From: an uncultured delta proteobacterium
GTDB taxonomy: Bacteria > Desulfobacterota > Binatia > UBA9968
DNA: 32,000 nucleotides
Assembly: GCA_963804165.1 (NCBI GenBank)
Contig: CAWDPO010000011.1
Coordinates: forward strand, 51,759-83,758
Direction: 5' to 3'
Shown: positions 782-19,748 of the stretch, one piece after another
Numbering within the stretch: position 1 is the stretch's first letter
Layout of the letters: each line of letters opens with the position of its first letter
Translations under genes and position numbers: made by a program
Notes under the pieces: generated by a model
What the model saw: only the letters and a program-made list of their open reading frames with translations
What the model was told of the DNA's origin: nothing
Database searches by the model: none

Positions 782-2086
782 ATGATCAAAGTTTTACACT
801 ATCTCAATCAATTTTTTGCCGGCATCGGCGGTGAGGAGAAAGCCGGACAGGAATTTTTCTTTCTGCCGAAGCCCGCCGGACCCGGTGTCCTGCTCCGCGA
901 CCTACTGAAGAACCAGGACATTGAGTATGCAACGGTGGTCTGCGGCGACAACTATTTTCATGAACATGAAGAAGCTGTTCTCGCTTCTTTGACGGAAGTG
1001 ATGGCGCAGTTTGCGCCGGACCTGTTTGTCGCCGGTCCGGCTTTTCATGCGGGGAGATACGGGCTTGCCTGCGCCAAAACCGCCAGCTTCGTGCGCGAGC
1101 GTTGGGGCGTGCCGGCGCTGACAGGGCTCTATGAAGAAAATCCGGGAACGAAGGAAGTCGGCCGGCATGTCTTGGTGATCCAGACGGGTTCGTCGGCTGC
1201 TTCGATGCAAACCGCCATTAAGCGGTTCGCCGATCTGGCGGTGCTTTTGCTCCACAAGAACGTTGAAAACCTCGAGGCCTTCAAAGAGGAATTTTGTCTA
1301 AAGATCCCGCGGCGATTTACCGTTCAAGCCGCTGCTCCCGACAGCGTACGAGCAGTGGAGATGCTGCTAGCTAAGCTGGGTGGCGCGGCTTTCGAGAGCG
1401 AGATCCCGCGAATCGAGGTGGCGCCCCATCCGGTTCCCGCCGCGATTCAAGATCTCTCTCAGGCAACTCTCGCCATGGTGACGGAAGGCGGTTTGGTGCC
1501 ATTAGGCAATCCCGACCGGCTGGAAAGCTCGCGCGGAACGAAGTACTTCAAGTACTCGATCAAAGAACGCGACGACTTGAAACCGGGCGAGTTCGAAGCC
1601 ATGCATACCGGTTACGACACCTCCACGGTCAACGCTGATCCCGACCGGCTTATTCCCGTAGACGCCATGCGGACATTGGAACGCGCCGGGAATTTCGGCA
1701 GACTTCACGATTACTATTATGTCACGACCGGAACCGGCGCCATGCCTGCCAAGATGCAGGAGCTCGGCGCAGGGATCGCCCAGGAGCTTTCGGCCTCGGG
1801 TGTAAACGGAGTCGTTCTCACTGCGACGTGAGGGACCGGCACGCGTAGCGGCGCTACGATCGCAAAAGAAATTGAGCGGAGAGGAATTCCGGTGGTGCTC
1901 ATCACCTGTCTCGCCAATGTGGCAACGCAAGTCGGGGCATACCGGATCATGAGCGGAAATAAATTTCACTACCCGGTGGGCAACCCGGATCTTCCGGCCG
2001 CCGAAGAAGCGAAGTGGCGCGCTGAGTTGCTGAGCGCGGCGCTGAAAATTTTACAAACCACAGTCGATGCCCCGACTGTCTTCTAA
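782..2086 (+). CDS. GrdB-family selenoprotein B-like reductase subunit, with selenocysteine encoded by the in-frame TGA at 1829-1831
   Basis: ORFs 782..1831 and 1892..2086 are in the same frame and are separated only by one TGA. The N-terminus (VLHYLNQFFAGIGGEEKA, GDNYF, AGPAFHAGRYG, TGLYEENPG) and the region after the TGA (GT.TR.GAT..KEIERRGIPVV ... LQTTVDAPTVF) match GrdB as I recall it. The TGA falls where GrdB has Sec (..LT.TU-GT..). Confidence 0.85.
1844..1858 (+). promoter_or_regulatory. Candidate bacterial SECIS hairpin for the UGA at 1829
   Basis: Perfect 6-bp stem cgtagc/gctacg around a G-rich loop (ggc, or cggcg if the top pair opens). It starts 13 nt after the UGA. Confidence 0.5.
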
Positions 2087-2099
2087 ATCGAATGCTGTC

Positions 2100-3822: not shown

Positions 3823-5358
3823 TCAGCGCAAAACGAATGTTCCGACACGGCCGAGTCCGTCGGAACCCATGTCGCTATTTTGAACCAATTCCCCGCGAAC
3901 CAATGACCACGCCGAGGATCTTGAGGTAGGGCCGACATCGTCGACGACGGTCCAGCCGGTAAGAGTCGTGCGGTTGAAGTCATCCCAAAGCAACTCCGCA
4001 CCAGTGGCGAGGTCGACGACTTTTACGTCGTCGAAAGCGCTTCCCTGATTGCGCGAAGAGTAAAGCGCGACGGTGCCGTTTCGAAAACTTTGATCGTGAA
4101 CAGAGAAAACCGGTTTACCGTCGATGTTGACCTTCAGAGTCGTTCCCTGGGCGATAAGCTCGATCAAATAGTTGTGACCACTGACGTACGGGACAGTATC
4201 CTCAGCGATAACCTTGAAAATACCGTTTTCACGTTTTATGAGCTGACGTCCCGCGGGTTCTTGCGCCCATGAAAAGCGATAATAGTTGTCTCTGTCCTGA
4301 TAGCGGAACATGACCCCTAACGTGTCATCGTCGGCAGAGCGCATTTTTAGCGCGACGCGATAGTCTTTCCAGCTTGCTTGAGTGTACAAAGCGTAGGTTC
4401 CTAATTGCCCGCCTCGCGTTGAAGAGATATTGCTGCTTTGCACCAGGGCGCCCGTGGCTGCGGACCAATGGGATGGGCCGGCGGAGTCTCCCTCGTCGAT
4501 AATGGTCCAGCTTCGATGTATGCCGTCATTGAAGTTGGCAGAGAGTAAGGTATTACCGCCGTTGAGGTCATCAACCACGATGTCGTCGAAGGCACTTCCC
4601 TGGTTGGAATACGAATATAACGCAATCGTCCCTTCCGGGATGGCGCTGTCGGTCACGGAGAACACCGAGCGTCCATCGATCAAGACCTTCAAGGACGAGC
4701 CCTGGGTGACGATTTGTAAAGTATACGTTTGCCCCACTGTGTACGGCACTGAGTCTTTCGCCAATACCTGGAACACACCGCCGACACGTTTCTCAAGTCG
4801 CCGAGAGCTATTCCCCGCAGACCAGCTGAAACGATAGTAGTTGTTTGGATCCTGATAGCGAAACATTGCTCCTATGGAGTCGCTATCGGTGGAGCGGATT
4901 TTCATTGTCAGGCGATAATTGTTCCACCGACCGGCGCCCTCTGCGCCGGGTGAGGGATTTGAGCCCAGAGCCGTGGAGCCAGTCGAGATCTGGGTGGTGG
5001 GAGTCAAGGTCGTAGGAGCCAGGTTCGTGGAAGTGGGCTGAGAATTACTCGAAACGGTGGCGCACGCGCTGTTGGAAGTCAGCGAATCTCCCGCCTTGTT
5101 AAACGCCCGCACGCGATAGCAGTAAGTTGATCCGGCGTTTAATCCTGAATCCGTGTAGCTTTCCGTATTGGCGCCCACCCGGGCGATTTCAACATACTTA
5201 CCTGAGATCTGGCGCTCGATCGTAAATCCGACTTCCGTGGCAGAATTGTCTCGCCAGTTCAGGAGTAGAGTAGCGGACTCACTGATGCTGGCCCATAGCG
5301 TCGTGAAACCGAGGGTGAACAAAACAAAGGCCAAGAACGGCAGTGGAATTCGGAGCAA
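3823..5358 (-). CDS. Secreted protein: signal peptide, FN3 domain, S/T/P linker, then two tandem ~170-aa concanavalin/LamG/DUF1080-like repeats
   Basis: TTG start 5 nt after TAGGAGGTG. Hydrophobic N-terminus. FN3-like segment LLLNWRDNSATEVGFTIERQ...YCYRVRAFN. The two repeats are clearly alignable (W.NYRLTMKIRS..GAMFRYQDPNNYYRFSW vs WKDYRVALKMRS..GVMFRYQDRDNYYRFSW). Confidence 0.8.
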   Translation of the reverse strand: MLRIPLPFLAFVLFTLGFTTLWASISESATLLLNWRDNSATEVGFTIERQISGKYVEIARVGANTESYTDSGLNAGSTYCYRVRAFNKAGDSLTSNSACATVSSNSQPTSTNLAPTTLTPTTQISTGSTALGSNPSPGAEGAGRWNNYRLTMKIRSTDSDSIGAMFRYQDPNNYYRFSWSAGNSSRRLEKRVGGVFQVLAKDSVPYTVGQTYTLQIVTQGSSLKVLIDGRSVFSVTDSAIPEGTIALYSYSNQGSAFDDIVVDDLNGGNTLLSANFNDGIHRSWTIIDEGDSAGPSHWSAATGALVQSSNISSTRGGQLGTYALYTQASWKDYRVALKMRSADDDTLGVMFRYQDRDNYYRFSWAQEPAGRQLIKRENGIFKVIAEDTVPYVSGHNYLIELIAQGTTLKVNIDGKPVFSVHDQSFRNGTVALYSSRNQGSAFDDVKVVDLATGAELLWDDFNRTTLTGWTVVDDVGPTSRSSAWSLVRGELVQNSDMGSDGLGRVGTFVLR

Positions 5359-5970
5359 ACTACACCTCCTAAAGCCGGTAAGATCCCGACCTGTGAAGGT
5401 GCGGGGAATCGTCTCGGGCAGTCTTTCAGTACTCAGTAGCGTCCCGCCAGCGCCTTTCAGGGTAGCGGGCTAATCGTCCATGTGCAGAGTGATTTAATTC
5501 TGGCGCGTCGCCGCACTGCAACGCAATCGCGATGCCAAGTACGGATCATCGAAAAAATTTGCTAACCGCATTTTCTGACTCTGAAACAATGAAACCATCG
5601 ACGGGACAAATGCATGATTTTTTGGAGGAACTGTCGCAAGAAAATTTTCGGTAACTGCGACTTCGCCAAAGCACTCCCGCTCTTTGTCGAGGAGCGATGT
5701 ATGAAAAAGAAGTCAAAATAGTGACAAAAGAGTGCAGGGAGGTTCGGACACTTTGGGCTCATTCAATTCAGATAACTTTAGTCTCTCCCGGTGATGCTCA
5801 TTCGGTAACGACGAGAGAGCATCGGTTCTGACGCGTCGATCTTGGTCGCCATTGTGATACTGTTGTTCGCTTGTCGAATTAGATATCCGTCTAGTTAGGC
5901 TGGCAGCTTATCATTAAGTTATGCTATCCATCGCTACAGTTTTATCATTTTGAGATCGAGGTAGGGCGTT

Positions 5971-7038
5971 ATGCAGATCGCGAAAATCGATACCAGGTTG
6001 CTCGAAATGCCCTATAACAAGCCGTTGGTTACGGCAACGAATAATTTCACCGTCGCGCGCGGATTGCTCGTGAAGGTCGCTACGGACGGTGGCATCGAAG
6101 GTTACGGCTATTCCGATCTCTTCCCGCGCACCGGCGAGACGCCCCAGACGGCGCAGCATGTCATCGAAACAGTTCTAAAAGGTAAGGTGGTCGGCAAGGA
6201 GATCGAGGATCTGCCGCGGATACGCGCCGACATCGATCATACTTTGACCGGAAACCCGCGGGCCAAGGCGGCTTTGGAAACCGCGATGTACGACGCGCTG
6301 GCGCGGGGCTATCACATGCCGCTATCCGTCATGCTCGGCGGGAAATATCGAAGCGAGATTAGAGTCATCAAGATGGTGAGCGTCGGCGATCCCGATGCGA
6401 TGGCCGAAGAAGCGAAACAGCTTGTGCGTAGCGGACTGGCGCTGAAGCTCAAAGTCGGCGGGAAGATTGAGCAGGATTTGCCCCGGGTTGCGGCCGTACG
6501 CAAGGCGGTCGGCGCCGACGTCTTCATCAAAGTCGACGCCAATGAATCGTACGATGCAAAAACCGCCATTCGCTTGGCCAAAGGGCTGGCCGATCACGGG
6601 GTGGAAGTCTTCGAACAGCCGGTGCCGCGCGATCAACTCGACGCCTTGTGGGAAGTGAAAAAGCATTCGCCGATCAAGATCGAAGCGGACCAGTCGGCAC
6701 GATCCTTCGCCGACGTACAGATGATGATTAAAAATCGCATGGTCGATTCGATCAACACGGGTATCGCTAAAGTCGGTAGCATTGGAGAGGTGCGCAAAAT
6801 CGCTGATCTTTGTGAGCTGAACGGTATCCGCTGCGCCCTCTCGAACACGGCGGGCAGTATGGTTGGCGACGCTGCCGCGGTGCATCTCGCGGCGAGCACG
6901 CCCGGTATCTCACCGTTGTGCGAGCTGGGCGAGTTTGAAGTGATCACCGGCGATCCATTTTTCGGCCTGACGGTCGAGAAGGGCATGATCAGCGTGCCGG
7001 AGGGCGAGGGATTGGGGGTGAGTCTCAGGGGATTCTAG
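5971..7038 (+). CDS. Mandelate racemase/muconate lactonizing enzyme family protein (enolase superfamily, dipeptide-epimerase-like)
   Basis: 355-aa ORF with the characteristic KVDANESYD, FEQPVPRD and IKIEADQS metal-ligand regions. Confidence 0.9.
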   Translation: MQIAKIDTRLLEMPYNKPLVTATNNFTVARGLLVKVATDGGIEGYGYSDLFPRTGETPQTAQHVIETVLKGKVVGKEIEDLPRIRADIDHTLTGNPRAKAALETAMYDALARGYHMPLSVMLGGKYRSEIRVIKMVSVGDPDAMAEEAKQLVRSGLALKLKVGGKIEQDLPRVAAVRKAVGADVFIKVDANESYDAKTAIRLAKGLADHGVEVFEQPVPRDQLDALWEVKKHSPIKIEADQSARSFADVQMMIKNRMVDSINTGIAKVGSIGEVRKIADLCELNGIRCALSNTAGSMVGDAAAVHLAASTPGISPLCELGEFEVITGDPFFGLTVEKGMISVPEGEGLGVSLRGF

Positions 7039-9274: not shown

Positions 9275-9740
9275 ACGGTTTCTCCGATCGGGCCCGTGTG
9301 CATCGGCTCGTTGACGGCATCGTCCGGAACCTCACTGCGTAGGGCCTGAAGAATGTTGCGCGCAGCGCGAAGCTCTATCTGGCGCCGAACCTCGTCCACC
9401 GCGGAGCCAAGGTGCGGTGTAAATAGCGTTTGAGACGGGTTATTGAGAAGGGTTTGCGGAATCGACTTGAGGTGGTCTTGCCGTTGCACGTCTTCGAGAA
9501 TACGCCCGCGGTATAGCCCGCGAGCTTACCCGACTCCAGAGCCCGTGCCACGGCACCTTCGTCGACCACTGATCCGCGACCGATGTTCACGAGACAACTG
9601 CCGGGCTTCATGGCAGCAAGCGTCACATCATTGATCAAGTGGAAGGTGCCGTCGAGCAGCGGCGCCGCCAGAAATCCTTGTCTTAAAGCAAGCGGATCCG
9701 CATCAATACATGGTGGAAATATACCTGCTCGTCAGGATTC
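9271..9740 (-). pseudogene. 5'-truncated, frameshifted D-isomer-specific 2-hydroxyacid dehydrogenase (PtxD/glyoxylate-reductase-like), C-terminal ~150 aa only
   Basis: ...[49 protein letters not shown] continues in another frame as ...[41 protein letters not shown]. The frame break is near 9485-9500. The NAD-binding GxGxxG region is absent because the neighbouring gene ends at 9742. Confidence 0.7.
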
Positions 9741-9741
9741 T

Positions 9742-11010
9742 CTAGCGCTCGGTGACAAGTATTTTCCCGCTCATATAGGGGTGGATTGAACAGAGATAAT
9801 CATAAGCGCCGGGGCGATCGAAATTCGCGCTGTAACTGGAGCCCGGCATCACTGTGTCCGAGGCATGCGCCATTCTTCACGGCGATGCTGTGCGGCGCGC
9901 CATCGTCATTGAGCCAAGTCACCGTTTCTCCTGAGGTCACTTCGAGAAGCGCGGGATTAAAAGCGAACCCACTGATCGTCACCCGCCGACTCGAAGATCG
10001 TTGCTGCGGTCGCTGCCGTTTGCACCACAATCTTTCGCGGCGCATTGCCGACTGGCGATATTGGTCACTGTGCCGCTCTCGAGATCGACGATGGACACAT
10101 CGTTGGAGTCTTCGTTGGTCGTAAGCGCGGTTTTTCCGCCAGGCCCGCCCGCCACCCAATGGGGCCGCGAGCCGACTTTGATCGATTTCTCAACGCTGTT
10201 TGTCTGCGGATTGAAAACGGCGAGCAGGCTCGGGCCTTGAACCGCGGTGAGACCGCGTTTGCCATCCGCCGTGAAGTTCGCGTAATGCGGCGAGACGCCC
10301 ACAGGGATTTCGCCGACGATTTTATTGCCTGCTCGGATCGACCACGACCACGGAATCAATGCCCGCCTGGGTGATATATAGGTGTCTTCCGCCGGGGCCG
10401 AACTCCAATCCGCGCGGGGTCTTTTCCAGAGGTACGCGTATTCGTGAGCTTGCGATCCGCCAGGTCGATGATCGCGAGCGAGAACTTGCCCGGTGATTGT
10501 GATCCAACATAGGCGAGCCGTCCATTTGGATGGACGGCGATGTTGTGCGGCTTGCCCACTGCAACGCTGCCGACCACTTTGCGAGTGGTGGTATCGATGA
10601 GAGCGACTGAATCGGTGTCGTACACCCCGACCAGGACAAACTTGCCGTCCGGGCTCGACTGCAACGCCGTGGGGGTTTTTGCCCACTTCGATGTTTTCGA
10701 CCAGCTTGTCCGTCGCCGTATCGATGACGCTGACGGTCGATGCGCCGTCGCTGGCAACATAGACCCAGCGGTTATCGGCCGTAATGGCGATGCCATGGGG
10801 GCCGGGCGGAACCGGGATGGTTGCCGTGACTCGCTTCAGCTCAACGTCAATGACGCTGATCGTATTGTCCTTAAAATTGCCGACGTAAGCTTTAGGTCCG
10901 GCGGCGATGGCGGCACTGGCGGTGAGAAATATCGCTGCCAGTAACAGAATTGTAACCGAGCAGCCATTGCGAAAAAATGGGATTTGGTCAAAGTTGGCTT
11001 TTTGCGACAT
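9742..11010 (-). pseudogene. Secreted YVTN/YncE-type beta-propeller fused to a C-terminal cupredoxin domain, broken by about six +1 frame shifts
   Basis: ATG at 11010 after GAGGT, followed by a signal peptide. Propeller repeats read across three frames (GPHGIAITADNRWVYVA; DGKFVLVGVYDTDSVALID; GKPHNIAVHPNGRLAYV; PRGLEFGPGGRHLYIT; VSPHYANFTADGKRG; SRPHWVAGGPGGKTALTT). The cupredoxin reads VTISGFAFNPALLEVTSGETVTWLNDDGAPHSI...FDRPGAYDYLCSIHPYMSGKILVTER, with its stop at 9742-9744. Breaks lie near 10655, 10435, 10330, 10055, 9985 and 9865. Confidence 0.75.
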
Positions 11011-11091
11011 GTCATCTACCTCAATGTAACTTAGAATTTGCATGAGCTACTGGTAGGACTAGGGCAGAAATATTTTATTCCATGGCGTAAT

Positions 11092-11123
11092 TTCGGGAAT
11101 AATATCGTTTCCCGAATGGTCTA
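11092..11123 (+). promoter_or_regulatory. Candidate ECF-type promoter/operator upstream of the sigma factor gene
   Basis: GGGAAT (11095-11100) and GGTCTA (11118-11123) resemble ECF -35/-10 elements. They overlap a 7-bp inverted repeat, TTCGGGA (11092-11098) and TCCCGAA (11110-11116). Confidence 0.25.
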
Positions 11124-11144
11124 CATTATAATAGGGGAATCGGG

Positions 11145-11711
11145 TTGGATTCGGACAACAAGAAAGCTCGTTTCGAGAATAGCGTGTCGCCGCATGTCGA
11201 TGCCGCGTACAATTTAGCCCGCTGGCTCACCCGCAACGAGCACGATGCGCAGGATGTGGTCGCAAGAGGCGATGCTCCGCGCGTTTAAATTTTTCGATGG
11301 TTTTCGCGGCGCGGATGCGCGTTCATGGGTGCTCAAGATCGTCCGAAATACATGCTTCACATGGCTTCAGGCCAACCGTCCCAATGAGATCGTCGGAACC
11401 GTCCCGAATGAGTTGGACGAATTGCCAGACGTTACTGCCGCCGCCGTTCTGTTCCGGGTCGGCCGATGATCCGGAGACCCTCGCGCTGCGCCGGACTACG
11501 GCTGCACAGATCGATAAGGCGCTATCCGCATTGTCGGCCCCGTTGCTCGAAGTCGTCGTTTTGCGGGAGTTGGAAGGGCTCTCGTACAAGGAGATTGCAA
11601 CGGTGATCGATGCGCCGATAGGGACAGTGATGTCACGGCTGGCGCGGGCTCGAGCGGAATCTGCGGCGTATTCTCGCCGGCTCGCAGTGTTTCGTGGGAG
11701 CAAGAAAATGA
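11145..11711 (+). pseudogene. ECF (sigma-70 family) RNA polymerase sigma factor, reading frame broken two or three times
   Basis: Region 2 (HVDAAYNLARWLTRNEHDAQDVV | QEAMLRAFKFFDGFRGADARSWVLKIVRNTC) and region 4 (LLEVVVLRELEGLSYKEIATVIDAPIGTVMSRLARAR) lie in successive frames 0, 1, 2 and probably back to 0. Breaks lie near 11260, 11445 and 11659. The last frame ends in an ATGA overlap at 11708-11711. Confidence 0.8.
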
Positions 11712-11723
11712 CGCCGGAGACGA

Positions 11724-12476
11724 ATGTGCGTGCTATTGCACGCCTATATTGACGGCGAACTCGATGCCGCCTCGACCATCGAGTTGGAGTCTCGGCTTAA
11801 GGCGTCCACGGCATTGCGGCAGGAATTGGCGCGCTTGACCGCTTTACAGCGGTCCGTGCAGAATCACGCCACGCGTTTCAACGCTCCGTCCGGCCTTACT
11901 GAAGGTTCGTTTGCGGAGATCCCCGCGGTTCAACCCAAAGCAATTCCTGTCGGCGTTCCGCCTTGGTGGCGTACGCTCGCGATCGGAACGAGCATCGCTG
12001 CTGTGGCGCTTTTGGTTTGGAGTCTCTCTTCGATCTTTGTCGGTCGTGAAACGAATTCTGTCCAATTGGAGGAGGTCGTCAGCGCGCACGTCCGCTCTCT
12101 GCTCGCGGATCATCTGACGGATCTTGCGTCCGCGGAACGCCACTCGGTCAAGCCGTGGCTGTCCAACCGTCTCGATTTCGCGCCGCCGGTTCTCGATCTC
12201 GCAAACGAAGGCTTTTCGCTCGCGGGCGGCCGGTTGGATTATCTTGGAGGAAAGCCGGCGGCGGCAATCGTCTACCGTTATCGGCAGCACATTATCAATG
12301 TTTTTGTCTCGCCATCGCTAACAAACGACAGCTCGATTCGAGCTTTGACTCACCGCGGTTATAATACGGCCAAATTCGAGTCCAATGGCATGAGTTACTG
12401 GGCTGTATCCGACTTGAATCCGGACGACCTGGGCAAACTCGCCAACCTGCTCCAACACCCACCGGTCACGAAGTAA
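11724..12476 (+). CDS. Anti-sigma factor (single-pass membrane protein, RskA/zf-HC2-like N-terminus)
   Basis: It lies directly downstream of the ECF sigma gene. The N-terminal C.LLHAYIDGELD motif is typical of anti-sigma factors. One transmembrane helix (WWRTLAIGTSIAAVALLVWSL). The start may be the ATG at 11708 if a further single-base error exists. Confidence 0.75.
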   Translation: MCVLLHAYIDGELDAASTIELESRLKASTALRQELARLTALQRSVQNHATRFNAPSGLTEGSFAEIPAVQPKAIPVGVPPWWRTLAIGTSIAAVALLVWSLSSIFVGRETNSVQLEEVVSAHVRSLLADHLTDLASAERHSVKPWLSNRLDFAPPVLDLANEGFSLAGGRLDYLGGKPAAAIVYRYRQHIINVFVSPSLTNDSSIRALTHRGYNTAKFESNGMSYWAVSDLNPDDLGKLANLLQHPPVTK

Positions 12477-13234: not shown

Positions 13235-13771
13235 GTGAGCAAAGATCAACTCATCCTGTCGGTCAGGTGGATGGCGGATCGCGAGATTGCCGTCTGTGGA
13301 ATTCTCAATCGCATATCCCACCCGCCCAAGGTCAAGAAGTTTTTTGTCGTCATCAGTTGGCTTGGTGACGGCGGGGCTTGGTACGCGCTGATTCTGGCGC
13401 TGCCGTTAATTTACGGCCAGAGCGGCTTACCGACATCCTTCGCTATGGTCAAGGTCGGTGTGGTTAATCTGCTGCTTTACAAAGTCATCAAACATCTCAC
13501 CGGTCGTCCGCGACCCTGCGCGATTAGCCCGAACATCACGGTTGGAACAGCGCCGCTCGATCAATACAGCTTTCCTTCGGGCCACACGATGCACGCGGTG
13601 GCTTTCTCTATCGTTGTAACAGCGGATCATGCGGAGCTGGCCTGGGTGCTCGTCCCATTCAGCAGTCTGATTGCGTTGTCGCGCATTGTGCTCGGTCTGC
13701 ATTACCCGACCGACGTGATTGCCGGCGGCCTAATCGGCGGATACGTCGTATCAGTTTTGATGACGGCGTAG
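13235..13771 (+). CDS. PAP2-family membrane (lipid) phosphatase
   Basis: All three PAP2 signature motifs are present: KHLTGRPRP, SFPSGHT and SRIVLGLHYPTDV. GTG start after AGAGGGAAAG. Confidence 0.9.
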   Translation: MSKDQLILSVRWMADREIAVCGILNRISHPPKVKKFFVVISWLGDGGAWYALILALPLIYGQSGLPTSFAMVKVGVVNLLLYKVIKHLTGRPRPCAISPNITVGTAPLDQYSFPSGHTMHAVAFSIVVTADHAELAWVLVPFSSLIALSRIVLGLHYPTDVIAGGLIGGYVVSVLMTA

Positions 13772-13790: not shown

Positions 13791-14054
13791 ATGCTAGACG
13801 CAGCGGATCTACTCGATCAATCCGCGGGCAGAGCGCTACTTTCGTCTGATGATTTTCCACTTCATCCACCGCGCGACGGTGGCGCCGCGAAATTCGACGC
13901 CCCATGCGGTGCCTGACAGCAGTCCGCCGAAGCGGACTTGCCAACGTCGGCGCCGATGCCGATCGGCACTGAGATTAAGGTGTCGGGGAAATATCATAAT
14001 GGTCCTGTCGAATGTGTCGGGCGCATGGGGATGCCGGCAAAAGTTAGAAATTAG
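13791..14054 (+). CDS. Candidate small selenoprotein (87 aa) with an in-frame TGA at 13914-13916 giving a D-A-P-C-G-A-U motif
   Basis: ATG 7 nt after AGGGGG and 19 nt after the PAP2 stop. The 41 codons, TGA and 45 codons are all in one frame and exactly fill the 280-bp convergent gap. A perfect 7-bp hairpin, agtccgc-cgaa-gcggact (13921-13938), starts 5 nt after the TGA. The family is not recognised, so this could be chance. Confidence 0.3.
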
Positions 14055-14587
14055 CGCTCCAAGTACGCGCCGAGGATGTAATAAACGGTCTCAAGAGCCG
14101 GAACCAGATACCAATCGTCATGCGGGAATCGCATGACCAAGAAAAAGCCCCAGATGGAAAGTAATGTGCCGATGTATTGCGGATGATCGAGCAGCGAGAA
14201 GGGAAACTTTTGGCACCAGCGAACGGCGTAGCCGAACTTGTCACCGTAGAACACTCCGACTTTGCCGAGTCGATAGAACACTCCGATGTTTAGAATTTGG
14301 CCCGTGACGATCAAGACCCCTCCTAAAGCAAGGGACGACACGCTTCCAGCGAGCGGCAAAATTGATCCGTTGCCAAAGACAAAGCACCAGCCGATGAACA
14401 CCGCGCCTTGAAGCACCTTGAAGCAAAAAAAGAGGAACCGTAACGCATCGACCGGATCCTCGATGCGTGCGAGCGCGGGACGCGCGCAAAGGACGCGAAA
14501 ATCCGCGGGCTTGCGCCAGATCCATAGGTAGCAGATCCGCTCAAGGCTCAATAATATCGCGGCGCCGAAAAAGACCCATGGATTCAC
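14051..14587 (-). CDS. PEMT/ICMT-like membrane methyltransferase (phospholipid methyltransferase family)
   Basis: 178-aa polytopic membrane protein with the C-terminal HPQYIG...L motif region typical of PEMT/isoprenylcysteine carboxyl methyltransferase-like enzymes. It is the last gene of the GT4 / aminotransferase-fusion string. Confidence 0.75.
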   Translation of the reverse strand: MNPWVFFGAAILLSLERICYLWIWRKPADFRVLCARPALARIEDPVDALRFLFFCFKVLQGAVFIGWCFVFGNGSILPLAGSVSSLALGGVLIVTGQILNIGVFYRLGKVGVFYGDKFGYAVRWCQKFPFSLLDHPQYIGTLLSIWGFFLVMRFPHDDWYLVPALETVYYILGAYLER

Positions 14588-14626: not shown

Positions 14627-16891
14627 TTAGGCGCTCTGGCGCCGGGGGAAATAGGCGACGATATCGGTCAATGGATCGGTGATCAGCTTGATGAACCAAA
14701 TCATCGAAATGCGAAAGTCGTGCTTCCACACCAGATAAACCACGCGCCCGAGGACCACCGCCAGGGTCCACAGAAACCAATTCAGCGCCACTGCGGCGAT
14801 CGTCGAGGTGAAGCCGTCCACCGTCCAATCGCCGGCTTGCGCCACATGGAACACTGGAATCAACAGATAGCCGAGGACGATCAGCGTCTTGTTGCGCGTG
14901 TTGTATCCTAAGAGTAATTTTTCCTTGTCATGACACGCGGGCTCCAAGATCGCATGACCGAACTGCCGCACAAAAAGGGCCGCCAACCCCAAACACATCG
15001 CGATGGTGAGATCGGAAAACGCCAGAACATAGCAGTAGATGAAGACACTCGAGCTCAACAGATGGAAGAATTGGTTTACGCCGTTGCTATGGGACGCGTG
15101 ATGATCATCATGTTTTCGTTGCATCACTTCGGCATAAAACGTCCGTAGGGGTTCTGGAGTTCGTACCAGACTGCCTAACATTTCTCGCATAAGACGAGCG
15201 CGCATAATTTTCTCCCTTCCCGGATATTGATCCGCGGTCAACCACCACGCGTCGATCTTCATCGAGTGCGCGGCGTTGAGCAGCTTTGCCTGCAAGTCAT
15301 TGTAGTCTGCCACAGTAAAATCCATGCTGCTTAAGCATCGGCCGGTGCCCACCCAACTAAGCGTCACGCCTTCGGCGCGGAGATAATACTGCAGCAGCCA
15401 GTTATAGCGACTCGGTTCCTTGAAGAGCACGGTCCATACCGTCGCGAGATTCACGACGCGCAAGGGTAACGCCGCGTCGGCGAGTTTCTGATTGGTCGAG
15501 TGCACCCATTCCGCGCAACGCTGATTGGACTCGTCATACAGTTTCACCGTGGCAGGCTCTACCACCCAGCGCAAAAATTCGTTCATCGCTCCCATCACCG
15601 CCGGATGCCCGGAAAACGTGCCGACAACGTAAGCGATGCGCATGGGATGCGCGGGATCGAAACGGCGCATGAGAGTTTTATTGCCGCACACCACGCCGAT
15701 GGGCAGGCCGCCGGCCACCGTTTTGCCGTACACGACCATATCCGCGCGCACGCCGAAGTATTCCTGTGCGCCACCCGGTGAGAGGCGAAAGCCGGTATAA
15801 ACTTCGTCGAAGATCAGTGGAATATCGCAGGCGCTGCACACCTCGCGTAGTTGGCGCAGCCACTGAGCGTAGCGCTCGGTGGAATCCTGGGTTTTACGCA
15901 CGTCGCTGGTGAGTAACACCGCATCATTGGGCGGTGGGGAATTAGGATGGAACGACTGCACCGGGTTGACCAGCACCCCGGCGATTTCTTTTGCCCGCCG
16001 GCGAATGACGGCGAGCGAGGCCGGATTGACGTCCTTGAGCGTGAGGCAATCATCGAGGGGGCGTTCACTCCCCAGTCCTGGCTGCACGCCGTCCCACCAG
16101 CCATGATAAGCCCCGGAAAAACAGACGACCAGTTTTCTCCGCGTATTGAACCGCGCCATGCGCACCGCGGCCATTACGGCTTCAGTGCCGCTCATATGAA
16201 ACGACACTTCGTCCAGGTGCGAAACATTCTTGAGCATAGCGATGTTGTCGGCGACGACCGGATGCACCGGGCCCAGGACCGGACCGAGATCTTTCACGCG
16301 TTCCCAGCCCTTCTGTATCCATTCTTTATAGCGGTCGAACCCGGCCACGTTGACGCCATAGGAGCCACTGACATCGATGGTCCAATGGCCATCGAGAGTT
16401 TGCAGGCGCGGGCCTTTTGAAGCCGTCACCACCGAGCAAAGATTGAATTTTTCCCGCATGACGCGCACAAACGGGAACGGTACGCGATTGGCGTCGGTGA
16501 AGCGCAGATCCGAGAAGCTCTCGCGGACCGCATTCGCCCAGGCGATGGACTGGTGATGCTGCGTTTGCAGAAACGTCGCCAGGCGATCAAGAGCTTTCTT
16601 GCGACGGTCAACCCAACTGTCTCCCGCTCCGTCAGCGCGCAAGAATTCTTCCTCCGTGTAATCGCGCGATTTCACCCAGTGCGACAGTTGCCGCGAAAGC
16701 GCCGGCATCCATGCCAGCGCCGGCAAAGTCATGAGAAATCGAATCAGCCTTTGCCCGGCGTAAGTTAGGAAAAACAGACAAAGAATAATTCCGAAGAAAA
16801 GCCAGCCGTCGAACAAAGCGAGCCGGCACGCCGCTGTCGAGCTCGCGTCAAGGCACACCGTCCATCTTTGCAAAGCTTCGTCGAAAATCAT
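14627..16891 (-). CDS. Tri-domain membrane protein: N-terminal TM segment, class-III (GSA-aminomutase-like) PLP aminotransferase, and C-terminal DUF962/Mpo1-like His-rich membrane domain
   Basis: ATG after GGGAGGAA. Residues 1-75 are hydrophobic helices. Residues ~150-540 (16444..15272) carry SGTEAVMAAVRMAR, FDEVYTGFR and the PLP-lysine context YGKTVAGGLPIG. Residues ~575-754 (15169..14630) carry HDDHHASH...FGHAILEP plus four hydrophobic helices, as in Mpo1/YGL010w-like proteins. Confidence 0.85.
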   Translation of the reverse strand: MIFDEALQRWTVCLDASSTAACRLALFDGWLFFGIILCLFFLTYAGQRLIRFLMTLPALAWMPALSRQLSHWVKSRDYTEEEFLRADGAGDSWVDRRKKALDRLATFLQTQHHQSIAWANAVRESFSDLRFTDANRVPFPFVRVMREKFNLCSVVTASKGPRLQTLDGHWTIDVSGSYGVNVAGFDRYKEWIQKGWERVKDLGPVLGPVHPVVADNIAMLKNVSHLDEVSFHMSGTEAVMAAVRMARFNTRRKLVVCFSGAYHGWWDGVQPGLGSERPLDDCLTLKDVNPASLAVIRRRAKEIAGVLVNPVQSFHPNSPPPNDAVLLTSDVRKTQDSTERYAQWLRQLREVCSACDIPLIFDEVYTGFRLSPGGAQEYFGVRADMVVYGKTVAGGLPIGVVCGNKTLMRRFDPAHPMRIAYVVGTFSGHPAVMGAMNEFLRWVVEPATVKLYDESNQRCAEWVHSTNQKLADAALPLRVVNLATVWTVLFKEPSRYNWLLQYYLRAEGVTLSWVGTGRCLSSMDFTVADYNDLQAKLLNAAHSMKIDAWWLTADQYPGREKIMRARLMREMLGSLVRTPEPLRTFYAEVMQRKHDDHHASHSNGVNQFFHLLSSSVFIYCYVLAFSDLTIAMCLGLAALFVRQFGHAILEPACHDKEKLLLGYNTRNKTLIVLGYLLIPVFHVAQAGDWTVDGFTSTIAAVALNWFLWTLAVVLGRVVYLVWKHDFRISMIWFIKLITDPLTDIVAYFPRRQSA

Positions 16892-16928: not shown

Positions 16929-18167
16929 TCAGTAGCTAACCGGCGTCGCATCGAAGGCGTCATCGGCGACAGCAGCGTGAACTTCATGATCCTCGTCGAG
17001 AGCGCCGATCAACAACTCGGCAAATCTTTCGACTACACGCTGCCAATCCAAAGAGGCGGCGTACTCGCGTGCCCGGCGCCGCATTTCCGCCAGCGATGGC
17101 GGTTCGTTGGCGAGCTTGGCCGCCGCTTCCACGAACGCTCGTGGATTTCCATTTGGTACTAACACTCCCGTCCTGCCGTCCGCGATGTGTGTCCGCGCCG
17201 CGGCGTAGTTGAAGGCAACGACGATCAGACCGCTCGCCATGGCTTCCAACGTCACGTTGCCGAACGTTTCCGTTTCGCTGGGGAAGAGAAAAATATCCGC
17301 CGAGGCGTAGCGCTTGGCCAGCTCTTCGCCTGTGTGTACGCCGCAGTAGATCAGGTCGGGATGTTTTTCCTGGAGGTTTGCGCGCAGCGGCCCGTCTCCA
17401 ACGAGCACAAATTTTACCCGGCTGCTGACCTGTTGCATGGCGCGGTAAGCCTCGATGGCGAGCGTCAAGTTTTTTTCCGCCGCGATCCGTCCGACGTAGA
17501 GCGCGACCCGATCCTGGTCCGTTGCCCGCCACATGCGCCGCACGGCGGCGGAGCGGCGGCCCGGATTGAACAGGCGGCTGTCCACCCCGCGACCGAGAAC
17601 GCTGACGTTTTTTATTCCCAGCGCTTGCAACCGATCACGCAGGTCAGGGCTGGCGACCAACGTGCCGTGCGCACGGTTGTGGAATTTGTGTAGGTAGCAG
17701 GCGATCAAGGGCCGCGACCATCCCGCATGATAATACCTGGAGTAGCTATCGAAGTTTGTGTGAAAGCCACTGAAGACGGGAATCTTCAGGCGCCGCGCGG
17801 CGCGCAGCGCAGACCAGCCGAGCGGCCCTTCAGTGGCTACGTACACGACGTCCGGACGACAAATCGACCAGCGCCGCCGCAGCGCTGCGCCGGATGGTAA
17901 ACCCAAGTGCAATCCCTGATAGCCAACCAGCGGTAAGCCGGGAACCAGCGTGTCCATCGAACGATCCTTGCGCTCCGCCGAGTCGCTATTCGATTGGCGC
18001 GGGCGGACCACAGATACCGCGTGACCGTGCAGGCGCAAACCCTCGACCAAGCGTGCCAAGGTCAAAGCCACGCCGTTGAGCTCAGGAGGATAAGTCTCGG
18101 TGACAATACAGAAATGGCGCCGACGGTTGGCGTCGTGATCGGACCAAGTTTGATGTGTTGTGCGCAT
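16929..18167 (-). CDS. GT4-family (GT-B fold) glycosyltransferase, SqdX/MgtA-like
   Basis: N-terminal VTETYPPELNGVA and C-terminal FLFPSETETFGNVTLEAMASG (E-x7-E) motifs. The listed ORF starts at a TTG (18251); the ATG at 18167 is more plausible. It ends 37 nt before the aminotransferase fusion. Confidence 0.85.
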   Translation of the reverse strand: MRTTHQTWSDHDANRRRHFCIVTETYPPELNGVALTLARLVEGLRLHGHAVSVVRPRQSNSDSAERKDRSMDTLVPGLPLVGYQGLHLGLPSGAALRRRWSICRPDVVYVATEGPLGWSALRAARRLKIPVFSGFHTNFDSYSRYYHAGWSRPLIACYLHKFHNRAHGTLVASPDLRDRLQALGIKNVSVLGRGVDSRLFNPGRRSAAVRRMWRATDQDRVALYVGRIAAEKNLTLAIEAYRAMQQVSSRVKFVLVGDGPLRANLQEKHPDLIYCGVHTGEELAKRYASADIFLFPSETETFGNVTLEAMASGLIVVAFNYAAARTHIADGRTGVLVPNGNPRAFVEAAAKLANEPPSLAEMRRRAREYAASLDWQRVVERFAELLIGALDEDHEVHAAVADDAFDATPVSY

Positions 18168-18488
18168 CACCACGTGGTCTGTATGGGCGTGATCGGTTAA
18201 CTTGTTAAAGAAGTAACGGGCCGGGCATAAAACCAATTTTCTTAGAGACAACTTAGTCGGGAAATGTGTCGGTTGAGTTACCGATGAACTAAGACTATGT
18301 AAACGCCGCGCGATTTCCGGGAATCAGATCGTCGGGTCTTTAACAGAAGTTTATCCAAACGTCGCGGTTATGTAACGTGTGTTGGAGATGAAGATCCATC
18401 AAATTTCAGAACGAAAGGATGGTCTCCATGAATCTTCATCAGCAACTCAAGCTAGCGCACGGGGTTTTGCGACGGAATATCGGGTGCG

Positions 18489-19748
18489 ATGTCGCCGCGC
18501 CAACCACAACACGAACGAAGCCTTTTCTCGGCGGCATCGTTGAACTGCTCATGCTACTCGCGGGTGCAGCGCCGGCTGGCGCTGATCCTCACGGCGATTC
18601 CCTGCCCAAGCCCCTGGTCATTGGCCCATCGCGGCGCTGCGGGTTATCTGCCCGATCACACACTGGAAGGATATGCGCTCGCCGTAGAGCTCGGCGCCGA
18701 TTTTATCGAGCCCGATCTCGTGGCGACCAAAGACGGCCACTTGATCGCGCGCCACGAGCCAAATTTGATCGCCACGACGGACGTAAGCAAGCGCGCGGAG
18801 TTTGCTGATCGCAAACGCATCGCGATCGTCGATGGGTTTCCCGAGGAAGGATTCTTTGCGTCTGATTTCACACTGGCTGAAATCAAGAAACTGCGCGCCG
18901 TGCAGCCGCTCGGATCCGAACGCCCGGTATATTTCGACGGTTTGTTCCAGATTCCGACATTCGAAGAAGTGATCGCTCTCGCGAAACGGAAGTCGAAAGA
19001 GCAGGGACGGACCATAGGCATTTACCCCGAAACCAAGCACCCCACCTATCATAAGAATCTCGGCCTGCCGTTAGAGCCCAGATTAGTAAAAATCTTGCGG
19101 GCCGAAGGCTGGGATAAATACGATTCGCCCGTGTTCATCCAGTCCTTCGAGCAAGGCAACTTGAAGGAACTGCGTAAGATGACGCGCAACAAGCTCGTCC
19201 AGCTGGTGGACGCCAACGACGTCAAGGACGACGGCACACTGGATTACACGGCGCCGTTTGACCGTCCCTACGACTGGACCGCTTCAAACGATCCGGCGCT
19301 CCTCAGCCGGACATTCGGATTCTTCGCGACCGATGCAGGCTTGAAGGAGATCAAGAGTTACGCGGACGGCATCGGTCCGTGGAAACGCTACATCGTGAGC
19401 TGCGTCGTAGCGAACCTAGCCGGTCCCGGCGAGGCAAGCCGCACGTTGTTGCCGGCTAACGATCTGATCGATCGCGCGCACAAGGCCGGCCTCCTAGTCC
19501 ACACCTGGACCTTTCGCAATGAACAGCGCCGTTTGGTAAGCGATTATGCCGGCAATCCGGTGGAAGAATACTTGCAGTTTTATGATCTCGGCATCGACGG
19601 CGTGTTCTCCGATTTCCCCGATACCGCAGTCGCTGCCCGGGTTTTATTCAAGATCGACGAGCCCGGTTTTGCCCGTTGCTTTACTGAAGGATCTGGCAAA
19701 CAAAACTCTAAGCACTTTGACATCACGCAATGTTTCAATCTCGAATAG
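18489..19748 (+). CDS. Glycerophosphodiester phosphodiesterase (GlpQ-like, probably exported)
   Basis: [46 protein letters not shown] closely resembles the GlpQ catalytic N-terminus. The start is uncertain; an internal GTG or TTG giving M(Q)[11 protein letters not shown]... would make a better signal peptide. Confidence 0.9.

Follow-up and report, generated by a model that had tools for sequence, protein, structure and literature searches.

A 32,000-nucleotide stretch of DNA from an uncultured delta proteobacterium of the Binatia (assembly GCA_963804165.1, contig CAWDPO010000011.1, positions 51,759–83,758), referred to here as the window, encodes a 754-residue protein that joins an N-terminal membrane anchor, a class-III pyridoxal 5′-phosphate (PLP) aminotransferase and a C-terminal membrane domain resembling yeast Mpo1 (DUF962). 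The open reading frame (ORF; 14627–16891, minus strand) is intact, beginning with ATG and terminating with TAA, and a candidate ribosome-binding site (GGGAGG) is located 8–13 nt 5′ of the start codon. It is the middle gene of a three-gene minus-strand operon, with a GT4-family glycosyltransferase gene 37 nt upstream and a gene for a methyltransferase of the phosphatidylethanolamine N-methyltransferase (PEMT) family 39 nt downstream. The initial annotation had described three parts within this one ORF; all are present as described and form a conserved family. A survey of how often the fusion occurs and which genes accompany it finds a relative encoded in 480 species (scan of one genome per GTDB species), with lipid head-group genes as neighbours among 80 fetched genome loci (L001–L080), the sample to which all counts for fused-type loci refer.

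The fused protein and its three parts

Hydropathy identifies a single transmembrane (TM) segment near the N-terminus, at about residues 27–47, and four further segments within the final 150 residues (607–626, 628–648, 668–688 and 694–723). In the N-terminal region (residues 1–125; 16517–16891, minus strand) the TM helix (nt 16751–16813) is followed by conserved juxtamembrane helices with the motifs SRxLSxWVKSRDYxEEEF and RADGAG, and this region is also kept in short, unfused aminotransferases. Lysine plus arginine residues number 2 before the helix and 5 after it, from which an N-out/C-in orientation is predicted. What had been annotated as an N-terminal membrane anchor is this one helix.

The three parts occur in a single frame in all 80 fused-type loci, and full-length homologs are 60–90% identical. 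More than 120 protein clusters match the window protein over its full length at 71–90% identity, and a comparison of homologs shows conservation to be even over all three parts. Among the carriers, most of them uncultured, are Binatia (often under the label 'delta proteobacterium'), Nitrospira, Rokubacteria/Methylomirabilota, Vicinamibacterales and other Acidobacteriota, as well as some Burkholderiales and Gammaproteobacteria, Myxococcota and Dormibacterota. The possibility that an indel or sequencing error had fused two genes, raised at the outset, is ruled out by the presence of the full-length protein in hundreds of genomes from several phyla, and the fusion is real. For a membrane enzyme, 60–90% identity across Nitrospirota, Acidobacteriota, Binatota, Methylomirabilota and Pseudomonadota is an unusually high value, which points to strong constraint or recent horizontal spread, alone or in combination. 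Five gene calls (P0123, P0130, P0132, P0170 and P0210; 190–280 aa, 65–83% identity to the window protein) contain the C-terminal domain only; they lie on contigs of 90–634 kb, and are therefore not simply cut by contig ends, and could represent fused genes that have been frameshifted or have split naturally.

The aminotransferase domain (residues ~126–560; 15212–16516, minus strand) belongs to PF00202 (Aminotran_3), with a Pfam match of 103.9 bits against a cut-off of 30.5. The PLP lysine, previously placed in YGKTVAGGLPIG, is K390 (codon 15722–15724), and the aspartate facing the PLP pyridine is D362 (nt 15806–15808). Both residues and the segment S234-G235-x-E237 (SGTEA) are invariant among homologs down to 24% identity, as befits the complete class-III aminotransferase that had been proposed. 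The best match among solved structures is the aminotransferase domain of the mycosubtilin synthase MycA (PDB 6kfm; E 5e-45, residues 126–523), in which the lysine of the YGK motif aligns with K390; glutamate-1-semialdehyde (GSA) aminomutase follows well behind at ~1e-30, and the PDB matches also include the aminopentol aminotransferase 6hbs and class-III 6′-aminotransferases. Outside the family, the nearest neighbours in an all-against-all search of representatives share ~39% identity over the aminotransferase core and are large proteins of several domains, which Pfam resolves into nonribosomal peptide and polyketide synthases (NRPS/PKS) with an aminotransferase domain (AMT) in the layouts ACP-AMT-C-A or KS-ACP-AMT-C-A.

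The best NCBIfam families are HemL models (TIGR00713, 166.6 bits against a cut-off of 527; NF000818, 166 against 398), and the protein falls outside the HemL equivalogs. The earlier label 'GSA-aminomutase-like' thus applies at the subfamily level and fails for the HemL equivalog itself, since the score of 167 bits compares with 527 and the nearest structure is MycA. The window protein shares the aminotransferase subfamily of HemL, but scores about one third of the equivalog cut-off, carries additional membrane parts and lacks a tetrapyrrole context. By sequence similarity the aminotransferase stands nearer to the β-ketoacyl aminotransferase domains found in lipopeptide PKS/NRPS enzymes than to HemL, and its MycA and NRPS/PKS relatives place it in a lineage whose members aminate the carbonyls of tethered, lipid-like substrates. 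It resembles the MycA domain in its class-III fold and YGK lysine motif, and the AMT domains of MycA and of the NRPS/PKS proteins aminate a carbonyl on a lipid-like substrate. However, no PP-binding, KS or C domain is encoded in the fused ORF or elsewhere in its operon, and the protein has sequence similarity alone in common with MycA-type domains; it is also membrane-anchored, has a 21-residue insertion (323–343), and is fused to a predicted metal-binding membrane domain.

That domain comprises residues 580–754 (14630–15154, minus strand). Its initial description as a four-helix, His-rich domain of the Mpo1/DUF962 type is correct with respect to the four TM segments and the histidines, but the relationship to Mpo1 is distant and in this protein lies below the Pfam threshold: PF06127 (Mpo1-like, formerly DUF962) is the only Pfam family matched, with 17 bits (E 0.006) against a gathering score of 24. 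A full-length homolog with 34% identity (P0260) reaches 38.6 bits, six more diverse members match the same region of the profile with 14–22 bits, and a standalone homolog from Sphingomonas also matches; altogether 19 of 42 C-terminal sequences match PF06127 and nothing else relevant. The His motifs that flank a TM hairpin align with profile positions 8–70. Residues D596, H601, N606, H610, S613, S614, R642, Q643, G645, H646, E650, K668, W732, K735, D739 and T742 are invariant in fused and standalone homologs, and H597 is invariant or nearly so; the small multi-TM domain therefore carries the conserved histidines (H601, H610, H646) of an Mpo1-like protein. Because of the transitive PF06127 matches and the conserved His/Asp/Glu motif, the domain is classified, on sequence, as a divergent branch of the Mpo1/DUF962 superfamily with putative catalytic activity. 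It shares with yeast Mpo1, an Fe2+-dependent 2-hydroxy fatty acid dioxygenase, the His motifs flanking the TM hairpin, but differs in its strong divergence, in an extra conserved C-terminal interfacial helix (W-x2-K-x3-D-P-x-T-D) and in always being paired with an aminotransferase.

An AlphaFold2 model of residues 575–754 (pLDDT 90) has four TM helices with one interfacial helix before them and another after them; a full-length model built with 20 close homologs reaches a pLDDT of 45, at which the arrangement of aminotransferase and membrane domain is unreadable. The K/R-rich loops and every conserved polar residue of the C-terminal domain lie on one side, and the two short loops on the opposite side have no lysine or arginine. 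The predicted topology is N-out with a cytoplasmic aminotransferase, and the modelled His/Asp/Glu cluster, presumed to be an Fe2+ site, would lie at the cytoplasmic membrane face beside it. A role of the C-terminal domain as a mere anchor is rejected in view of its polar His/Asp/Glu residues, which stay unchanged in homologs as distant as 24% identity and in the standalone proteins.

Split systems and gene neighbourhoods

A large sister family consists of proteins of 550–580 aa with the TM anchor and the aminotransferase but without the C-terminal domain. In every such locus inspected (six: L081, Methylocella; L083 and L084, Burkholderiaceae; L085, Xanthobacteraceae; L086, a metagenome contig from JGI; and L089, Sphingomonas) the unfused aminotransferase gene is adjoined by a gene for a protein of 200–215 aa, which is 28–32% identical to residues 582–748 of the window protein (E 1e-18 to 1e-22). 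The two catalytic parts are separate adjacent genes in Alpha- and Betaproteobacteria, and their fusion in one lineage and adjacency elsewhere argues that they act together. Judged from these arrangements, the functional unit is the aminotransferase/Mpo1-like pair, rather than the fusion as such. The Sphingomonas locus belongs to a cultured organism, S. parapaucimobilis YK209, and lies on a 385 kb plasmid (NZ_CP155753.1, 69.5–73.6 kb; genes ABDZ99_RS12245–12260) as a four-gene module encoding a phosphatidylserine decarboxylase (PSD)-like protein (annotated 'asd'), the aminotransferase, the Mpo1-like hypothetical protein and a PmtA-like methyltransferase.

Three further relatives (P0243, P0245 and P0247) are 48–51% identical over the anchor and aminotransferase and lack the Mpo1-like domain. 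They have N-terminal extensions of 620, 330 and 208 aa, respectively, some with several hydrophobic stretches, and look eukaryote-like by eye. The P0243 extension has a weak GT2-like match ahead of the aminotransferase (PF00535, 22.4 bits against a cut-off of 23.3), and none of the three extensions has similarity to any context protein.

Two genes recur immediately beside the fusion. The upstream gene (16929–18251, minus strand; Glyco_transf_4 and Glycos_transf_1 in Pfam) encodes a retaining GT4 glycosyltransferase whose best NCBIfam matches are two lipid glycosyltransferases, GlcNAc-PG synthase (157 bits) and Mgs (95 bits), both below cut-off; the GlcN-PG synthase (PMC12713373) is only a distant relative (157 against 480 bits). 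In 72 of the 80 fused-type loci a GT4 gene is found no more than 4 kb away, and in 43 of 77 it is immediately upstream on the same strand. The downstream gene (14051–14587, minus strand) encodes a PEMT-family membrane methyltransferase (PF04191, 55 bits against a cut-off of 25), for which N-methylation is the predicted activity, and a PEMT-like gene has this position in 44 of 76 loci. No operon promoter or terminator candidate in the scan exceeds the shuffled expectation.

Other neighbours also act, by family, on lipids. PlcP is a metallophosphoesterase, and an LpxH-like, PlcP-like metallophosphoesterase gene is present within 3 kb in 26 of the 80 fused-type loci, and also in L084 and L088; its products are far below the LpxH cut-offs and are putative counterparts of PlcP. 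Copies of this gene from Nitrospira-type loci and from a Burkholderiaceae Pho locus share ~50% identity. A PSD-like gene is always present in the split systems (TIGR00163, 143 bits against a cut-off of 112) and in none of the 80 fused-type loci. Alphaproteobacterial split systems have instead of a PEMT-like protein a class-I methyltransferase, for which the best NCBIfam family is PmtA, a phospholipid N-methyltransferase (130–151 bits, below the equivalog cut-off), with the next family at 75 bits or less. Two unrelated methyltransferase families thus occupy the equivalent position, and since their lipid-active members methylate the amine of phosphatidylethanolamine (PE), this suggests that the aminotransferase product is a lipid amine. 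Haem genes are absent from the neighbourhoods examined.

In the window itself the operon is flanked by two further genes. A convergent PAP2 lipid phosphatase gene (13235–13771, plus strand; PF01569, 78 bits) is a possible source of diacylglycerol, but is conserved only in the closest locus, L001, and its link to the system is weak. Divergent from the operon is a gene for a GlpQ-like glycerophosphodiester phosphodiesterase (GDPD; 18489–19748, plus strand; PF03009, 146 bits; NCBIfam PRK11143, 190 bits against a cut-off of 254), of a kind typical of phosphate scavenging. Such a gene adjoins the operon both in the window and in L001, where it is co-directional and directly upstream of GT4.

Two further clusters add hints. 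In L086 a UDP-glucose 6-dehydrogenase gene and a GalU-like gene adjoin the cluster (4327–6569 region, minus strand), hinting at a glucuronosyl donor. The GT4 protein of this locus (9599–12313, plus strand) is 904 aa long; by eye its N-terminal region (HCHDHNSD...) resembles a metal phosphoesterase of the PHP type and might take the place of PlcP. Locus L082 has a fused gene together with genes for PSD, GT4, GpsA, a HAD protein, an acyl-activating acyltransferase (AMP-binding/PP-binding) and two FAD oxidases of the alditol/lactone-oxidase/DprE1 kind.

Several neighbourhoods are linked to phosphate. The Burkholderiaceae modules L083 and L084 have PhoR-PhoB-PhoU-PhoX, an OlsB-like acyltransferase and a phosphonate ABC transporter as immediate neighbours, and in L088 the order is PPK1, metallophosphoesterase-fusion-PEMT-GT4, an OprO/P-type porin, PstS and PstC. 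Among the 80 fused-type loci, PPK1 is found in 10, a PstS-family gene in 8 and an OmpR-type regulator in 12, counts that are far above chance for single-copy genes within 8 kb, with many of the loci interrelated. The OlsB-like N-acyltransferase (Acetyltransf_5; L083 5292–6092 and L084 6292–7092, both plus strand) immediately adjoins the split module's PSD-like gene, and ornithine-type aminolipid synthesis may be co-regulated or connected with this module. The region upstream of the window GT4 gene contains TTACAT repeats, seen by eye.

A possible lipid head-group pathway and its alternatives

The initial proposal that the enzyme acts on a lipid or membrane-embedded substrate gains strong backing from this context of GT4, PEMT-like, PlcP-like, PSD-like and PAP2 genes. 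Architecture, conservation, family assignments, predicted topology and gene linkage are the observations from which we infer substrate, product, oxidase activity and regulation. The reading put forward is that the metal domain generates a carbonyl by oxidising one position of a lipid head group, the aminotransferase aminates that carbonyl and a neighbouring enzyme N-methylates the amine, giving an amine-bearing, phosphorus-free lipid under phosphate scarcity; it is tentative, and there is slightly more reason to doubt it than to accept it.

Under this reading a single TM helix would tether the cytoplasmic PLP aminotransferase beside the 4-TM Mpo1-like domain, with its presumed Fe2+ at the cytoplasmic face. 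Using O2, the Mpo1-like domain would create a carbonyl where the head group bears a hydroxyl, most plausibly at a position of the α-hydroxy-acid type by analogy with Mpo1; the result would be a keto acid, or an aldehyde if decarboxylation follows. The aminotransferase would turn the carbonyl into a primary amine, and the downstream PEMT-like enzyme would N-methylate it. The lipid is probably phosphorus-free and diacylglycerol-based; the adjacent Agt-like GT4 could make it, with diacylglycerol supplied by the PlcP-like phosphoesterase in many relatives and perhaps by PAP2 in the window. Taking the typical function of each family, the chain would run from α-hydroxy acid to α-keto acid (Mpo1-like), to α-amino acid (aminotransferase), to amine (PSD-like) and to methylated amine (PmtA-like or PEMT-like), a series on a lipid that resembles the conversion of phosphatidylserine (PS) to PE and phosphatidylcholine (PC). 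In split systems the amino-acid intermediate would be decarboxylated by the PSD-like enzyme; fused systems, having no PSD, might use oxidative decarboxylation to an aldehyde, or might convert a glucuronosyl lipid to an amino-pentosyl lipid via a keto-pentose in the manner of ArnA/ArnB.

Known phosphate-starvation remodelling swaps phospholipids for glycolipids, diacylglyceryl trimethylhomoserine (DGTS) or ornithine lipids, and the module may be an add-on to it, in which an amine or methylammonium head group would replace phospholipids of the PE or PC type. A plcP gene next to a GT4 gene (agt) is the signature of a phosphate-starvation remodelling operon that makes monoglucosyl diacylglycerol (MGDG) and glucuronosyl diacylglycerol (GADG) from diacylglycerol (PMC4796936). 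The PlcP-Agt operons of Sinorhizobium, SAR11, Pseudomonas and Burkholderia resemble some of the loci described here in having adjacent LpxH-like metallophosphoesterase and GT4 genes with Pho-regulon neighbours (PMC4796936). They stop at MGDG/GADG, however, whereas here the aminotransferase/Mpo1-like pair and an N-methyltransferase are added, and the window lacks PlcP.

The logic of oxidising a sugar and then transaminating it is that of ArnA/ArnB, which make 4-amino-4-deoxy-L-arabinose (Ara4N) with uronate decarboxylation by ArnA, and of 6′-amination of the NeoQ/NeoB type. Those systems use soluble nucleotide sugars or aminoglycosides and NAD or FAD oxidases, whereas here both activities would reside at the membrane, with an Mpo1-like metal enzyme as the oxidase. 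PSD-like and PmtA-/PEMT-like enzymes are linked to the pair just as Psd and PmtA/PEMT serve the PS-PE-PC pathway, and the expected product shares an amine or methylammonium head group with PE, PC and DGTS (BtaA/BtaB). Unlike in the PS-PE-PC and DGTS pathways, the amino group would arise on the lipid by oxidation and transamination, and not from serine or S-adenosylmethionine.

Neither the enzyme families nor the remodelling framework is new; the pair, its fusion and the predicted product are. That no characterised enzyme has this architecture, as initially stated, agrees with a literature search, which returned no characterised enzyme or pathway of the kind and no paper tying a class-III aminotransferase or DUF962 to plcP-agt or to any bacterial lipid; bacterial DUF962 is mentioned only in passing in the literature found. 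A more specific proposal is that the pair is the core of an undescribed pathway in which an ethanolamine- or choline-like head group is built directly on a phosphorus-free lipid, with a hydroxy acid or uronate passing through a carbonyl and an amine to an N-methylammonium, yielding new cationic or zwitterionic 'betaine-like' (glyco)lipids; this is possible but doubtful.

If true, these lipids would form an unrecognised class of nitrogen-containing, phosphorus-free membrane lipids in about 480 species, including nitrite oxidisers (Nitrospira). Their makers, under phosphate scarcity, would be abundant and mostly uncultured bacteria of soil and freshwater (Binatia, Nitrospira, Vicinamibacterales, Methylomirabilota, some Burkholderiales and Sphingomonas), and the carriers include dominant uncultured soil lineages (Binatia, Acidobacteriota and Methylomirabilota). 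The proposal would be relevant to 'aminolipid' signals that environmental lipidomics has left unassigned, to membrane charge, to cationic-antibiotic resistance and to a microbial trade of nitrogen for phosphorus. It would also provide a first function for a bacterial Mpo1/DUF962 protein and a rare case in which a PLP enzyme and a membrane metal oxygenase are physically linked. The split form in cultured S. parapaucimobilis makes the question directly addressable.

Several points weigh against the head-group proposal. There is no GT4 gene within 9 kb of the Sphingomonas module, and the glycolipid link is thus not universal; the window itself has no PlcP-like or PSD-like gene. Its GT4 reaches no NCBIfam equivalog and is a candidate rather than an established counterpart of Agt. 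No Pho box of the Escherichia coli type is present 5′ of the window GT4 gene, and two matches elsewhere in the window are no more than expected by chance. No family member has a reported product or activity, a pyranosidic glucuronate does not offer the free α-hydroxyl needed by Mpo1 chemistry, and those characterised aminotransferases that are nearest in sequence use acyl-thioesters rather than head groups as substrates.

One alternative is an acyl-chain route, in which the Mpo1-like domain, like yeast Mpo1, would α-oxidise a 2-hydroxy fatty acid to a keto or aldehyde intermediate and the aminotransferase would form a 2-amino fatty acid, a fatty amine or, like MycA, a β-amino acyl group, later methylated or glycosylated. 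The best solved homolog is the β-ketoacyl aminotransferase domain of MycA, with NRPS/PKS-embedded domains next-closest. Mpo1, the only enzyme of its family known to be characterised, reportedly acts on 2-hydroxy fatty acids, in line with the Pfam description of PF06127. The L082 cluster contains the AMP-binding/PP-binding/acyltransferase gene, and an acyl-CoA synthetase gene is near five loci. However, most loci lack a carrier protein, a ligase or a fatty-acid 2-hydroxylase, and the recurrent partners (GT4, PlcP-like, PSD-like and PmtA-/PEMT-like) are all head-group enzymes acting on diacyl lipids. We consider the acyl-chain route unlikely.

The absence of GT4 from the Sphingomonas module, with its PSD-like, aminotransferase, Mpo1-like and PmtA-like genes, would suit an alternative route to PS, PE and PC, in which a phospholipid head group such as a glycerate or glycerol derived from phosphatidylglycerol is converted to a serine type, with PSD and PmtA/PEMT then yielding PE and PC. 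The PSD-like proteins score as genuine PS decarboxylases, and the GpsA, HAD and two alditol/lactone-oxidase-like FAD enzymes of L082 could oxidise a glycerol head group. Linkage to PlcP-like and Pho-regulon genes, however, is a setting in which phospholipid synthesis is normally reduced, and GT4 is linked in 72 of the 80 fused loci and PSD in none of them, which makes such a conversion rather unlikely in our view.

The direction of the reaction could also be reversed, the aminotransferase deaminating PE, PS or an ornithine lipid with a keto-acid acceptor and the Mpo1-like domain oxidising the resulting carbonyl or hydroxy acid, in the service of phosphorus or nitrogen recycling. Class-III aminotransferases are reversible, relatives such as the aminopentol aminotransferase 6hbs deaminate lipid-like amines, the PAP2 and GDPD neighbours in the window degrade parts of phospholipids, and an OlsB-like acyltransferase adjoins the module in L083 and L084. 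But the N-methyltransferases and glycosyltransferase of the operon are biosynthetic, methylation of an amine would be pointless in degradation, and a catabolic role is quite improbable.

Least credible by far is a membrane-tethered HemL paralog of tetrapyrrole synthesis or an artefactual fusion: JGI labels the homologs glutamate-1-semialdehyde 2,1-aminomutase and HemL models give the top NCBIfam scores, but the missed equivalog cut-offs (166 bits against 398–527) and the neighbourhoods devoid of haem genes refute the former as far as sequence evidence allows, and full-length occurrence in hundreds of genomes across several phyla does the same for the latter.

Other features of the window

Two further features of the window lie to the left of the operon in the coordinates used here. 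At 11297–12476 (plus strand) a gene for a sigma factor of the extracytoplasmic function (ECF) type (Sigma70_r4_2) overlaps one for a putative anti-sigma factor, which matches zf-HC2 weakly and has a TM segment at its centre; these two genes are 0.8 kb from the PAP2 gene, and no evidence was found that they control the lipid operon.

The second is an ORF of the GrdB family at 782–2089 (plus strand; PF07355, 385 bits). It is interrupted by an in-frame TGA (1829–1831) after codon 349, beyond which the frame runs on for ~85 codons, and a perfect hairpin (CGTAGC-GGC-GCTACG, ~1844–1858) begins 12 nt past this TGA. Judging from this arrangement, the TGA looks like a selenocysteine codon with its selenocysteine insertion sequence (SECIS), and the product like a selenoprotein resembling component B of glycine/sarcosine/betaine reductase.

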